Positions 9,001-15,000 of a DNA stretch of 64,000 bases are shown in pieces. How positions within the stretch are numbered: the first letter of the stretch is position 1; each line of letters begins with the position of its first letter. Position numbers: made by a program. The DNA is taken from NCBI RefSeq assembly GCF_058153355.1, contig NZ_CM177019.1; one strand, written 5' to 3'.

Positions 9001-12000
9001 GCTTAATTTTACCGTAGACCTACAAAAACACAGTGCCAGGCAATTCCCAACGACTGGAAGCACAAGTCCAACCGTTCCTTTCCAGATTACGTTAAGTGAA
9101 TGTAGCAAAGGGACTACGGGGGTTCGGGTTGCATTTAGCGGGATAGAGGATTTAGAAAATAATACTCTGCTGAAACTGGATGAAGGAAGCAATTCTGCTT
9201 CCGGTTTGGGTATTGAAATTCTGGACGGAAATATGCGCCCAGTAAAATTAAATGACCTTCATACCGGAATGCAGTGGATCCCTCTGACTCCTGATCAGGA
9301 TAATATTTTGCCTTACTCGGCCCGTTTGAAGTCAACACAAAAGTCCGTCAATCCAGGACTGGTTAGCGCTTCGGCAACATTTACCCTTGAATTTCAATAA
9401 TCAGAGTGAGACATGAATAGAACTTTCCAAAGACTTCTGTTGGCTACGCTCTGTGCGCTATTTTCAGCAACTCTCCAGGCCGCTGATGTCACTATCACTG
9501 TTAATGGTCGGGTAGTTGCTAAACCCTGCACTATTCAAACCAAAGAAGCTAGCGTTAATCTCGGGGATCTTTATACACGCAATCTGCAACAACCAGGTTC
9601 TGCATCTGGCTGGCACGATATTACTTTGTCATTAACCGATTGTCCGATTGAAACAAGTGCAGTGACGGCAATCGTAACAGGTTCAACTGACAATACGGGT
9701 TATTACAAAAATGAAGGTAGTGCCGAAAATATTCAAATAGAGCTGAGGGATGATCAGGAGGCGACGTTAAAAAGTGGCGATAGCAAAACGGTTATTGTTG
9801 ATGAGATCACACGTAATGCACAGTTTCCACTTAAGGCAAGAGCTATCACGGTGAATGGAAACGCAAGCCAGGGAACGATCGAGGCGCTAATCAATGTGAT
9901 CTATACCTGGCAATAACATCGATTCGATTTTATAAGCCTCTTTTTTAAATCAATTTTTAACCTAAGGATTTATCATGGGAAAAAAAATTAGTATAAATGT
10001 CCTGTTCAGTATTTATTTTCTTTTGATGGCAGGTAAAGTCTTCGCCTTCAGTTGTAATGTTGATGGTGGGTCAAGTATTGGCGCAGGTACAACTTCGGTG
10101 TATGTTAATCTCGATCCTGTCATTCAACCAGGTCAGAATCTGGTTGTAGATTTGTCTCAGCATATAAGTTGCTGGAATGATTACGGCGGCTGGTACGACA
10201 CAGATCATATTAACTTAGTACAAGGCTCAGCTTTCGCAGGCTCCCTACAGTCATATAAAGGATCGCTGTACTGGAATAATGTGACCTACCCCTTTCCGTT
10301 GACGACAAATACCAACGTGCTGGATATTGGTGATAAGACACCGATGCCCTTACCGTTAAAACTCTATATTACCCCTGTCGGGGCGGCCGGTGGCGTTGTC
10401 ATAAACGCGGGAGAAGTTATTGCTCGCATTCATATGTATAAAATTGCAACGTTAGGAAGTGGAAATCCGCGTAACTTTACATGGAATATTATTTCAAATA
10501 ACAGTGTTGTTATGCCAACGGGCGGCTGTACCGTTGATAGTCGTAATGTCACAGTGAGTCTCCCGGACTTTCCTGGAAGCGCAGAAATACCCCTGGGCGT
10601 ATATTGCTCAAGTGAGCAAAAGCTCTCATTTTATCTTTCGGGCGCTACCACTGACAGTGCCCGACAAGTGTTTGCTAATACAGCACCTGACGCAACAAAA
10701 GCATCAGGAGTCGGTGTCTCCCTGATGCGTAATGGAAAAATACTGGCTACGGGAGAAAATGTCTCCCTGGGAACGGTAAATAAAAGCAAAGTACCCCTGG
10801 GCTTAAGTGCAACTTATGGACAGACAGGAAGCAAGGTCGCAGCTGGAGCAGTACAGTCAGTCATTGGCGTTACATTTATCTATGAATAATTGTGATGTTG
10901 ACCCTGTTATACTTTAGGTTGTGCTTTCCATTTACTAAAATTACGCGGATAATTCTTTCCTGAGAGAAATTATCCTACACCTGTAAGAAAATCCGCGCAC
11001 AATTGAAGTCAGAGTCTTATTTTATATATTGAAAAGTATGTTAACTTAAAGACTATGAGAGATGATGCTTAACTTATCGCATTTATACTATTCTGTTATG
11101 TGACGATAATGAGTTAAAAATAGAATGAGAGTAGCCCCCTACTCTCATATATCCAAATGGCCGATAAACCCATTATATATACTGCGCATCATCGCTATTA
11201 CAAATCCTAATAATTCATTTCCACACAGGATAAGCTGATGAAGAAAAAAATTGAATCCTACCAGGGAGCTGCCGGTGGTTGGGGGGCTGTCAAATCTGTA
11301 GCGAATGCAGTCCGTAAGCAGATGGATATACGCCAGGAAGTGATTGCCATGTTTGACATGAATAAGCCAGAAGGCTTTGACTGTCCCGGATGTGCATGGC
11401 CAGATCCTAAGCACAGCGCGTCATTCGACATTTGTGAAAACGGCGCAAAAGCAATCGCCTGGGAAGTCACCGATAAGCAGGTGAATGCCTCTTTTTTCGC
11501 TGAGAATACGGTTCAATCATTACTTACCTGGGGAGATCACGAACTCGAGGCTGCGGGGCGTCTCACTCAACCTTTGAAATATGATGCCGTCAGCGACTGT
11601 TACCAGCCATTAAGCTGGCAACAAGCTTTCGACGAAATTGGCGCACGTCTTCAAAGTTATAGTGATCCAAATCAGGTTGAATTCTATACTTCGGGCCGCA
11701 CTTCCAATGAAGCTGCCTTTCTTTATCAGCTTTTTGCCCGTGAATACGGTACCAATAACTTTCCCGACTGCTCAAACATGTGCCATGAACCGACCAGCGT
11801 GGGTTTGGCAGCGAGTATCGGCGTGGGTAAAGGGACCGTGTTACTGGAAGACTTTGAGAAATGCGATTTAGTAATTTGCATTGGGCATAACCCTGGTACA
11901 AACCACCCTCGCATGCTGACTTCGTTGCGCGCTTTAGTGAAACGGGGAGCGAAAATGATTGCCATCAATCCTCTGCAGGAGCGTGGCCTGGAGCGATTTA

Positions 12001-15000
12001 CCGCACCACAGAACCCGTTTGAAATGCTGACGAACTCCGAGACTCAATTGGCTAGTGCTTACTATAATGTGCGCATTGGTGGCGATATGGCGTTGCTAAA
12101 GGGGATGATGCGCCTGTTAATTGAGCGCGATGATGCTGCAAGTGCTGCGGGTCGGCCCTCATTGCTGGATGACGAATTCATTCAAACGCATACCGTCGGC
12201 TTTGACGAGCTACGCCGTGACGTTCTCAATTCCGAGTGGAAAGATATCGAACGTATTTCTGGACTAAGTCAGACACAAATCGCCGAACTTGCTGATGCAT
12301 ATGCCGCTGCCGAACGAACCATTATCTGTTACGGAATGGGGATCACTCAGCACGAACATGGTACCCAGAACGTACAGCAACTTGTCAATCTGCTGTTGAT
12401 GAAGGGTAACATTGGCAAGCCTGGTGCGGGTATCTGCCCACTACGTGGTCACTCTAATGTACAGGGCGACCGAACCGTCGGTATCACCGAGAAACCGTCT
12501 GCAGAGTTTCTGGCTCGCCTGGGTGAGCGCTATGGCTTCACCCCACCTCATGCACCTGGACATGCTGCAATCGCCAGCATGCAAGCAATATGTACGGGGC
12601 AAGCTCGAGCATTGATCTGCATGGGGGGCAACTTTGCACTGGCAATGCCAGATCGGGAAGCGAGCGCTGTACCGTTAACGCAATTAGATCTGGCGGTACA
12701 CGTTGCCACAAAGCTTAACCGCTCACATCTGCTGACTGCACGGCATAGCTATATTCTGCCGGTTCTGGGACGTAGCGAGATTGACATGCAAAAAAGCGGT
12801 GCGCAGGCGGTAACCGTTGAGGATTCAATGTCAATGATTCATGCCTCGCGTGGCGTGTTAAAACCCGCAGGTGTCATGCTGAAATCAGAGTGTGCTGTGG
12901 TCGCGGGAATCGCGCAGGCAGCGCTCCCCCAGAGCGTGGTGGCCTGGGAGCATCTGGTGGAAGATTATGATCGCATTCGCAATGACATTGAAGCTGTGCT
13001 GCCAGAGTTCGCCGACTATAACCAGCGCATCCGCCATCCTGGTGGTTTTCACCTGATAAACGCAGCTGCTGAAAGGCGCTGGCTGACGTCGTCAGGTAAG
13101 GCTAATTTTATTACCAGTAAAGGGTTGTTAGAAGATCCCTCTTCGGCGTTTAACAGTAAGCTGGTCATGGCGACAGTGCGCAGTCACGATCAGTACAATA
13201 CGACGATTTATGGTATGGATGACCGCTATCGAGGGGTATTCGGTCAACGAGATGTGGTCTTCATGAGTGCTAAACAAGCTAAAGTTTGCGGTGTAAAAAA
13301 CGGCGAAAGAGTTAATCTTATTGCGCTTACGCCAGACGGTAAGCGCAGCTCACGCCGCATGGATAGATTAAAAGTGGTCATTTACCCTATGGCTGACCGC
13401 TCACTGGTGACCTATTTTCCAGAATCGAATCACATGCTAACACTTGATAACCACGATCCATTAAGTGGCATTCCTGGCTATAAAAGTATTCCGGTTGAAT
13501 TAGAACCATCAAATTAATTCGCCTCCTCATTTCTTCTGCTGTCATCCGCACAGCAGAAGAATTCCTCATTGACCATTGTCGCGCAATTTACTCACATGTG
13601 CTAAATTAAACTGCTCGCTATAAGATATATACCTCCGCCTACAGCTGTAAGAAACTCCGCTCAGTACTGAAGCACCAGTCCTATTTCCTCTTTTTTCCAG
13701 CCTGTTATATTAAGCATACTGATTAACGATTTTTAACGTTATCCGCTAAATAAACATATTTGAAATGCATGCGACCACAGTGAAAAACAAAATCACGCAA
13801 AGAGACAACTATAAAGAAATCATGTCTGTAATTGTGGTTGTCTTATTACTGACACTTACGTTGATAGCCATTTTTTCGGCAATTGATCAGCTGGGTATTT
13901 CAGAAATGGGTCGCATTGCAAGAGATCTTACACATTTCATTATCAATAGTTTGCAAGACTGAAAATAAACAGCAAATTATAAATATGAAATGCTAAAAAA
14001 GTATCGATAAAAACTTTATTGTTTTAAGGAGATAAAATGTCGCTCGTTTGTTCTGTTATATTTATTCATCATGCCTTCAACGCTAACATTTTAGATAAAG
14101 ATTACGCCTTCTCTGATGGTGAAATCCTGATGGTAGATAACGCTGTTCGTACGCATTTTGAACCTTATGAGCGGCATTTCAAAGAAATTGGATTTAATGA
14201 AAACACCATTAAAAAATATCTACAATGCACTAATATTCAGACAGTGACTATGCCTGTTCCTGCGAAGTTTTTACGTGCTTCAAATGTACCAACTGGATTA
14301 CTTAATGAAATGATTGCTTATCTCAACTCTGAAGAACGCAATCATCAGAATTTTTCTGAACTTTTGCTTTTTTCTTGCCTGTCTATTTTTGCTGCATGCA
14401 AAGGTTTCATTACATTATTAACTAACGGTGTGCTATCCGTATCAGGGAAAGTGAGAAACATTGTCAATATGAAGCTGGCACACCCATGGAAACTAAAAGA
14501 TATTTGTGATTGCCTGTATATTAGTGAAAGCCTGCTGAAGAAAAAACTAAAGCAAGAGCAAACGACATTCTCACAAATTCTTTTAGATGCCAGAATGCAA
14601 CACGCAAAAAATTTGATACGCGTAGAAGGTTCAGTCAATAAAATTGCCGAAAAATGTGGTTATGCCAGTACATCTTATTTTATTTATGCTTTCCGCAAAC
14701 ATTTCGGCAACAGTCCAAAGAGAGTTTCAAAGGAGTACCGTTGTCAAAGGCACACGAATATGAACACGGGCAACACGATGAATGCTTTGGCTAATTGATT
14801 ATTCGCTCACGTATAGTCAACTACAAACGCTAAGTAAGAATTAAAGGGGCAGCTATTACCTGCCCCAATCTGTCGTTACGAATTGTATTTCATGATGAGA
14901 ATTAGTGATATACATCACAAATTTATGCATCTGAATAATCTGTTTCATATTTATTTATGATCTCAATGCAATGAATTACCAAAAAAACACATAATATCAT

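Follow-up and report, generated by a model that had tools for sequence, protein, structure and literature searches.

The analysed DNA (the window, 64,000 nucleotides) carries ydeP followed by safA and ydeO on the same strand (Table 1); these genes and ydeQ were identified from matching E. coli genomes annotated in RefSeq. A stable hairpin, terminator-like in appearance, devoid of a T-run and conserved against K-12, lies just after the ydeP stop codon. The motif CCTACA-NN-TGTAAGAA, which an earlier note had placed upstream of both ydeP and safA-ydeO, occurs at exactly two sites in the window, 10974-10989 and 13638-13653, both on the plus strand, and no third match was found in the 64 kb even when two mismatches were allowed (0.23 expected).

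Each site was scored against TTCYTACA-N2-TGTARGAA, the 18-bp inverted-repeat consensus of EvgA sites reportedly given by Masuda and Church (2003) and by Itou et al. (2009), and the half-sites were scored with a matrix built from seven K-12 EvgA boxes. The corresponding K-12 boxes match the consensus at 14/16 (ydeP) and 15/16 (safA) positions, and all 12 copies, taken from both loci of six Escherichia genomes including the divergent genome L007, retain the core CCTAC..TGTAAGAA. Boxes of 18 bp that likewise match at 14-15 of the 16 specified positions precede the other direct EvgA targets emrK, frc, yfdX and yegR. The box itself is no different here from other EvgA-binding sites, and the fit of 14-15/16 upstream of two EvgA-activated operons supports the assignment of both boxes to this site class. 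Gel shifts and box mutations have reportedly been obtained for ydeP and b1500-ydeO by Masuda and Church (2003).

Table 1. Features of the ydeP-safA-ydeO region (window coordinates; relative positions refer to the probable transcription start)
Feature	Position	Strand	Remarks
Promoter cassette, copy A (ydeP)	10972..11079	+	box and conserved spacer, followed by a putative extended -10, the probable start and ~25 nt of transcript
EvgA box, ydeP copy, ATCCTACACCTGTAAGAA	10972..10989	+	imperfect 18-bp inverted repeat; 15/16 to consensus; half-sites 10.5 and 12.9 bits
TCCGC block	10992..10996; copy B 13656-13660	+	near-invariant; about -63..-59
Alternative ydeP core promoter, TTGAAG-16-TATATT	11003..11030	+	start would be at ~11037; PMC3946193
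TGAAG block	11004..11008; copy B 13668-13672	+	invariant; about -51..-47
AGTCYTATTT block	11013..11022; copy B 13677-13686	+	invariant; about -42..-33
Extended -10, TG-T-TAACTT (copy B TG-T-TATATT)	11039..11047; copy B 13703-13711	+	fits a start at ~11055
Probable ydeP transcription start	11055	+	from the K-12 leader -178..+10 (PMC11210196), mapped by alignment
ydeP coding sequence	11238..13517	+	759 aa; downstream of copy A
Hairpin between ydeP and copy B	13531..13561	+	dG -17.5 kcal/mol, z -4.5
Promoter cassette, copy B (safA-ydeO)	13636..13743	+	in register with copy A
EvgA box, safA-ydeO copy, CGCCTACAGCTGTAAGAA	13636..13653	+	14/16 to consensus; half-sites 8.0 and 12.9 bits
safA	13765-13962	+	65 aa; downstream of copy B
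ydeO	14037-14798	+	253 aa; downstream of copy B, with safA

Extent and specificity of the shared sequence

The two upstream regions were compared without gaps at a fixed offset of 2664 bp, with the in-register statistics computed by script. Identity is 15/16 within the box, 26/40 over the next 40 nt and 25/45 over the following 45 nt, and it drops to background on both sides (13/60 beyond the cassette and 9/40 directly upstream of the box). The in-register similarity spans ~102-108 bp from the box, with 67/102 positions identical (66% overall), about double the ~50-bp module that the earlier note had described. The pairwise alignment proposed there, as a test of whether the resemblance is confined to the 18-bp box, continues well past it. 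When the box was left out, 52/86 positions were identical versus the 27% that composition predicts (binomial p 6.5e-11), corresponding to a z of 7.3 against shuffles, none of which gave more than 38 identical positions. In an ungapped comparison with the whole window, each copy matches the other best, the runner-up reaching 39-42/86. Likewise, Smith-Waterman alignment of the box-excluded regions gave z 8.5 for K-12 and 8.3 for the window, a score reached by none of the shuffles (0/300 to 0/500, and 0/300 when dinucleotides were preserved). The best ungapped 50-nt window has 38/50 identical positions (76%), and with gaps the similarity runs on to ~13760, nearly to the safA ATG.

Alignments revealed no extension of the duplication upstream of the boxes, into the ydeP leader, into safA or into the safA-ydeO spacer. 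Neither the regions upstream of the boxes nor the ydeP leader against safA and ydeO gave a significant alignment (z -0.9 to 0.7), and no SafA-like reading frame was found in the ydeP leader. In a repeat search of the window (seed 8), the ydeP/safA pair is not among the top 20 families listed.

The specificity of the resemblance was assessed with a set comprising ydeP, safA and five other K-12 promoters with an EvgA box (emrK, frc, yfdX, yegR and evgA), i.e. 21 pairs. In register, the other promoters share at most 37/86 positions, and box-excluded local alignment of the remaining 20 pairs gave z ≤2.3, compared to 8.5 for ydeP/safA in K-12. The suggestion in the earlier note that the module is duplicated, and not merely a short motif in common, is thereby upheld, the z of 8.3-8.5 with the box removed standing against ≤2.3 for the other EvgA pairs. 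Shared EvgA architecture does contribute something to the similarity, as emrK and yfdX match safA in register at 34-37/86 positions, ~3-3.7 sd above background. Isolated echoes were also seen between pairs, namely AGTCCT at an identical offset in safA and emrK, TTA(T)ATTTAAACACTA(T)GAGAG in ydeP and yegR, and CTCTCTGATT in register in frc and yfdX. A regulon-wide "EvgA promoter cassette" was considered on this basis and rejected, no echo being significant after 21 comparisons (z ≤2.3). Because five other EvgA-box promoters lack such similarity, the extra resemblance between ydeP and safA is best explained by common ancestry, EvgA architecture alone being insufficient.

Spacer blocks, core promoter and transcription start

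The sequences TCCGC, TGAAG and TC.TATTT, previously pointed out downstream of the box, were found in both copies. The first has the same state in 11/12 copies, the exception being TTCGC in the ydeP copy of L007, and its CGC core is invariant over the 12 copies; both copies show a T/C polymorphism directly after TGAAG. The AGTCYTATTT block occupies the position expected of a -35 element or of a proximal activator contact. None of the three blocks resembles an EvgA half-site, and a search of the spacers of six ydeP/safA copies with the half-site matrix gave no secondary EvgA half-site of at least 4 bits (1.15 expected). The blocks would most likely serve as contacts, whether for the alpha-CTD of RNA polymerase, for additional EvgA, or for a co-regulator or repressor common to both promoters.

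Extended -10 promoters of the sigma-70 type are defined by TGn directly before a -10 hexamer that has A at position 2 and T at position 6, at a suitable distance from the start. All 12 copies have the pattern TGnTAnnTT, with 7-8 nt separating it from the start that follows from the -178..+10 ydeP leader used for K-12 (PMC11210196). By alignment, the safA start would fall at ~13718-13719, and the box centre would be near -74.5 relative to the start. A different ydeP promoter, TTGAAG-16-TATATT, has been given in PMC3946193, with the TGAAG block of ydeP doubling as its -35-like hexamer. A start at ~11037 would place the box at about -56.5; this promoter sequence is conserved neither in copy B nor in L007. 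The cassette includes a putative core promoter and the probable transcription start, and is not upstream activator DNA alone. Neither the cassette nor its shared transcribed part has a match in Rfam, and the latter, considered as an RNA element, has folds that do not surpass those of shuffled sequences (z about -0.7).

Conservation and origin of the two copies

Sequence change in both copies has been several-fold slower than in the intergenic DNA on either side. Relative to K-12, copy A has diverged by 5.6% (20-22% in its flanks) and copy B by 1.6% (21.5% upstream of it), the third positions of ydeP having diverged by 11%. Relative to L007, the values are 14% and 23% for the two cassettes versus 29-37% and 32% for the sequences they were compared with. 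The inferred ancestors of the two copies are slightly more alike than the present sequences (48/68 vs 45/68), which is a weak signal. Upstream of the closest non-Escherichia homologues of ydeP (Edwardsiella, 85% aa identity, Yersinia, Raoultella and Tatumella) neither box nor cassette was found, and the upstream DNA there is unrelated.

We consider it probable, at roughly 80%, that the two stretches are paralogs, each a copy of a single complete ~105-bp EvgA-dependent promoter cassette, and that they lie in tandem 2664 bp apart and drive ydeP and safA-ydeO. In the proposed mechanism, a phosphorylated EvgA dimer binds the 18-bp inverted repeat at the head of each copy, as published, and would act on a putative sigma-70 promoter ~50 bp downstream of the box that has no usable -35 hexamer and an extended -10, TGnTAnnTT, transcription probably starting 7-8 nt after the latter. 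The cassette would have been copied once, in either direction, as a sharp-edged unit reaching from the box to the transcript start, at a time that predates the divergence of the sampled Escherichia lineages. This copying would have put two non-homologous operons under one acid-sensing regulator, and both copies would have been under purifying selection since then.

Alternatively, the promoters may have arisen independently and be alike because they bind the same proteins at the same spacing (EvgA, RNA polymerase, perhaps H-NS, a YdeO-dependent repressor and PhoP). Such convergence would fit the finding that 43/93 non-box columns, clustered in blocks, are invariant over the 12 copies, the weak in-register resemblance of emrK and yfdX to safA, AGTCCT of emrK included, and the report that both promoters undergo YdeO-dependent repression (PMC11210196). 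Still, the other EvgA promoters carry the box without the spacer, and copying is a far simpler explanation for ungapped 60% identity over 86 nt at adjacent loci of the same orientation. Moreover, at GATGCTTAAC the rarer safA alleles of L059 and L007 resemble the ydeP copy more closely than the common safA allele does, as expected from one ancestor. Convergence as the full explanation is improbable, but given the 43 invariant columns some of the identity between the paralogs could owe its preservation, or even its existence, to common function and not to descent.

Ongoing gene conversion between copies A and B would be another way of maintaining the similarity. It would agree with the T/C polymorphism that follows TGAAG in both copies, as well as with the extended -10 of L007, which reads TGC in both copies compared to TGT in all E. 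coli copies. Conversely, 17 differences between the ydeP and safA loci are fixed in the six genomes, the paralog identity is constant at 51-55/92 in every one of them, and homologous exchange is unlikely at about 65% identity, copy A not even being paired with copy B by blastn; we regard this explanation as very unlikely. The chances are slimmer still that the cassette is part of a family of dispersed repeats or mobile promoters (REP/MITE-like, or a "putative mobile promoter"). Dispersed repeats of the REP, ERIC or MITE kind are recognized by many copies per genome at unrelated loci, whereas each copy here has a single place per genome (median 1) in some 5320-5370 of the 5426 E. coli genomes, and a third locus is absent; no terminal repeats around the cassette were found in the repeat search of the window, and the best 50-nt window stays under 80% identity. 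Finally, both regions are AT-rich intergenic DNA, and the 18-bp box could be all they share, the remainder reflecting chance or composition. This reading is refuted for practical purposes by the box-excluded identity and by the shuffles described above, those preserving dinucleotides included.

Regulatory context and comparison with known systems

Transcription of ydeP and ydeO is activated by EvgA (PMC11210196), direct binding of EvgA at the safA-ydeO promoter is stated in PMC9496106, which cites Itou 2009, and the EvgA site is present at all directly regulated genes (PMC4283999). The fit with direct EvgA activation of both operons, which the earlier note had also put forward, is in line with this literature (PMC11210196, PMC9496106) as well as with the site class of the boxes. 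The boxes and the direct activation being already published, the whole-promoter paralogy is an incremental addition, and EvgA control of ydeP and safA-ydeO, textbook E. coli acid resistance, is unchanged by it. Beyond the motif published in the accessible literature, ~90 more bp, putative core promoter included, appear to be homologous between these two targets only. That the promoters are one cassette copied whole would explain why PydeP and PsafA reporters behave alike, and the three conserved spacer blocks are obvious targets for mutagenesis. A more tentative proposal, which we hold to be somewhat unlikely, is that the spacer blocks are the site of an unrecognised shared co-regulator, e.g. 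the factor behind the YdeO-dependent repression of both promoters, and that the copying of this multi-input cassette, as a unit, to a place upstream of safA-ydeO was what gave the E. coli lineage its EvgA>YdeO>GadE cascade and its EvgS-to-PhoQ connector. If true, the growth of a regulon through duplication of a promoter would have a dated and concrete example here.

BvgA-activated promoters of Bordetella (e.g. fhaB) combine a far-upstream primary inverted repeat with cooperative, lower-affinity BvgA dimers reaching down to the -35 region, and their secondary sites are degenerate. The ydeP and safA promoters are similar in having a NarL-family regulator, a high-affinity inverted repeat centred at ~-74.5 (with the start at 11055), a weak or absent -35 element and a conserved spacer. 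They differ in that the spacers of the six copies contain no secondary half-site of at least 4 bits, although BvgA secondary sites are themselves degenerate and binding could still occur. A BvgA-like model with multiple dimers was not retained, as the matrix finds the primary box alone in the six copies and gives the model no sequence support. Similarity between EvgA and BvgA has been described (PMC9496106).

Putative mobile promoters were defined by more than 50 nt aligned at ≥80% identity (Matus-Garcia, Nijveen & van Passel 2012, PMC3488235), and the best 50-nt window found here reaches 76%. The ydeP/safA copy is much older and more diverged, it is limited to two tandem adjacent copies, and the ydeP copy, 159-266 nt from the start codon, lies outside the search window of that survey. 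In common with the surveyed cases, a homologous promoter stands before non-homologous genes, and the sequences upstream and downstream of the cassettes do not align. As in the surveyed cases, genes, here horizontally acquired, are wired to an existing regulator, and the ydeP/safA pair would be a clean example of such wiring to one regulator through promoter duplication.

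Extent of the shared promoter unit

The motif CCTACA-NN-TGTAAGAA, which the earlier note had placed upstream of both ydeP and safA-ydeO, was indeed found at both loci (Table) and nowhere else in the 64 kb, even with up to two mismatches allowed (0.23 matches expected). The corresponding 18-mer boxes read ATCCTACACCTGTAAGAA (ydeP) and CGCCTACAGCTGTAAGAA (safA). The two upstream regions were compared ungapped at a fixed offset of 2664 bp, and identity was scored per segment: 9/40 directly upstream of the box, 15/16 in the box, 26/40 in the first 40 nt after it, 25/45 in the next 45 nt, and 13/60 further downstream. 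Similarity in the pairwise alignment proposed in that note thus extends past the box, with 52/86 non-box positions identical versus 27% expected (binomial p 6.5e-11, z 7.3; all shuffles ≤ 38). The two copies are each other's best ungapped match window-wide (runner-up 39–42/86); over 10974-11075, 67/102 positions are identical to the safA copy, and a gapped alignment of the K-12 copies reaches ~105 nt past the box, nearly to the safA ATG. Comparisons upstream of the boxes, across the rest of the ydeP leader and with safA/ydeO gave no significant alignment (z −0.9 to 0.7). Consequently, the shared unit is sharp-edged, covering about 10972-11079 and 13636-13743, roughly twice the ~50 bp originally proposed.

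In K-12, boxes were also located at the other direct EvgA targets emrK/evgA, frc, yegR and yfdX, the last with two boxes 38 bp apart. Compared in register, ydeP and safA agree at 52–53/86 non-box positions against a background of 22 ± 4, while either of them shares 33–37 with emrK, 29–34 with yfdX, 27–31 with yegR, 27–29 with frc and 20–22 with the evgA direction. Since emrK and yfdX lie ~3 sd over background, EvgA promoters do have a weak architecture in common. Box-excluded Smith-Waterman scores against dinucleotide shuffles gave z 8.5 (0/300) for ydeP/safA, whereas none of the 20 other pairs exceeded z 2.3. The ydeP/safA resemblance is thus of another order and is best explained by copying, which supports the earlier view of a duplicated module rather than merely a shared short motif.

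Two lesser resemblances were observed. The adjacent targets frc and yfdX both carry CTCTCTGATT at an identical offset (+23..+32) past their boxes (K-12 loci L002 13507-13524; L005 1001-1018 and 1039-1056), which, together with the double yfdX box, may point to another, older promoter copy, not significant alone (z 2.0). Likewise, TTA(T)ATTTAAACACTA(T)GAGAG is common to ydeP and yegR in the region of the presumed −10 and start (K-12 loci L001 and L003, the latter upstream of yegR), at box distances differing by ~4 nt and with z only 2.2.

Core promoter, spacer and transcript

Features of the ydeP–safA region (window positions); copies are the ydeP and safA cassettes of six Escherichia genomes
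Feature	Position	Strand	Remarks
ydeQ	9975-10889	+	
CCTACA-NN-TGTAAGAA, ydeP side	10974-10989		
TCCGC	10992-10996		identical in 11/12 copies; TTCGC in the ydeP copy of L007, a divergent Escherichia genome
TGAAG	11004-11008		conserved across 12 copies
AGTCYTATTT	11013-11022		conserved across 12 copies
TGnTAnnTT	11039-11047		conserved across 12 copies; ydeP TGTTAACTT, safA TGTTATATT
Hairpin ATGAGAGTAG-CCCC-CTACTCTCAT	11125-11148		perfect 10-bp stem; long ydeP 5' leader, outside shared cassette; + strand dG −13.4, z −5.3; − strand −16, z −3.9
ydeP	11238-13517	+	
Hairpin TTCTTCTGCTGT...ACAGCAGAAGAA	13531-13561		12-bp stem; directly after ydeP stop codon; dG −17.5, z −4.5
CCTACA-NN-TGTAAGAA, safA side	13638-13653		
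safA	13765-13962	+	
ydeO	14037-14798	+	

Besides the tabulated blocks, the box and a short stretch past TGnTAnnTT are conserved in the 12 copies, and TGnTAnnTT itself reads as a putative extended −10. The ydeP leader in PMC11210196, where the gadA, gadB and evgA leaders begin at known transcription starts, begins at −178 from the ATG; via the window/K-12 alignment this end maps to 11055, 8 nt past the hexamer. From this we infer starts at ~11055 (ydeP) and ~13718 (safA), a box centred near −74.5 and the lack of a usable −35. An alternative ydeP core promoter, TTGAAG-16-TATATT at 11003-11030, was picked up by a consensus scan and is listed for ydeP, together with an H-NS mark, in PMC3946193. 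L007 does not preserve its −10, however, and in safA the aligned stretch (CTGAAG-16-TCTTTT) is missing the key A; this promoter is ranked second, after the extended −10. In E. coli AR_0077 the ydeP cassette has naturally lost 1 bp from the T-run that lies between AGTCTTATTT and the −10, making the box-to-(−10) distance one base shorter.

A scan of six ydeP/safA copies found no EvgA-like half-sites at ≥ 4 bits in the spacer (1.15 expected); the spacer blocks do not resemble such half-sites, and a BvgA-like chain of EvgA dimers is consequently without sequence support. An alpha-CTD contact, degenerate EvgA contacts and a shared repressor are candidates for their role.

Folding of the shared transcribed part is not significant (z about −0.7), nor did it match any Rfam family. 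The strong hairpin behind ydeP, conserved against K-12 and without a T-run, likely separates the transcription units of ydeP and safA-ydeO, although the wording "ydeP-safA-ydeO operon" occurs in one paper (PMC11052181). Its position between ydeP and the safA cassette is consistent with two units that each have a separate EvgA promoter. The very stable leader hairpin, largely conserved in K-12 and L007, is followed on the minus strand by a U-run and scores there as an intrinsic terminator, as if stopping antisense transcription out of ydeP.

Age, selection and origin

Both copies were found in the window, K-12, three more E. coli alleles and L007. Of 93 non-box columns, 43 do not vary among the 12 copies and 17 separate the two loci as fixed differences; paralog identity is 51–55/92 in each of the six genomes. 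The copying event is therefore older than the sampled Escherichia lineages. No sign of ongoing homogenisation was seen across the 12 copies; the inferred ancestral states are slightly closer (48/68) than the present K-12 copies (45/68), and some safA alleles keep GATGCTTAAC of ydeP. In L007 both cassettes (3741-3850 and 6392-6500) show a parallel change at the extended −10, TGC in place of the TGT seen in every E. coli copy, which may reflect coincidence or a minor conversion event.

Window and K-12 differ by 5.6% in the ydeP copy and 1.6% in the safA copy, versus 20–22% in flanking intergenic DNA and 11% at ydeP third-codon positions; against L007 the copies differ by 14% and 23%, versus 29–37% and 32%. 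Purifying selection acts on both copies. About 5320–5370 of 5426 complete E. coli genomes carry each copy, once per genome. The flanks (10890-10971, 11080-11187 and 13571-13635), with indels, lie at ~2x the ydeP third-codon divergence from K-12. The ydeP-upstream allele of the window is rare: among ~5330 E. coli records, only 14 match it at ≥ 99% identity, and the majority lie at 80–90%.

Elsewhere, the closest ydeP homologues are in Edwardsiella (85% aa; loci L008, L009 and L011), Yersinia rohdei (67%), and Raoultella and Tatumella (56–58%). These homologues have unrelated DNA upstream and neither a box nor safA-ydeO, which fits the stated restriction of evgAS and safA-ydeO to E. coli/Shigella (PMC5706723, PMC9496106). 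The nearest YdeP outside Escherichia is that of Edwardsiella and no other Escherichia species was returned, which suggests that the E. coli lineage acquired ydeP horizontally. A contig placed in the bin "Candidatus Nanosynbacter sp." (JARKOR010000108.1) has a K-12-like ydeQ-ydeP-safA region (YdeP 99% identical); contamination of the MAG by E. coli DNA is almost certainly the reason.

Relation to known systems

The 18-bp motif, with gel shifts and box mutations, was reportedly described by Masuda & Church 2003, and Itou 2009 is also said to cover the EvgA site and how EvgA directly activates both ydeP and safA-ydeO. Both site and activation are established (PMC4283999, PMC11210196, PMC9496106), in agreement with the earlier reading of the boxes. 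The regulatory system itself is already known; what is added is only that the promoter in its entirety (box, spacer, extended −10 and start) is a conserved duplicate of ancient origin that includes three unexplained spacer blocks. As an instance of promoter reuse, the pair is similar to the "putative mobile promoters" (PMC3488235), but ydeP/safA reach 76% over 50 nt where the criterion there is ≥ 80%, and, unlike a mobile promoter family, they represent an old tandem event with two copies.
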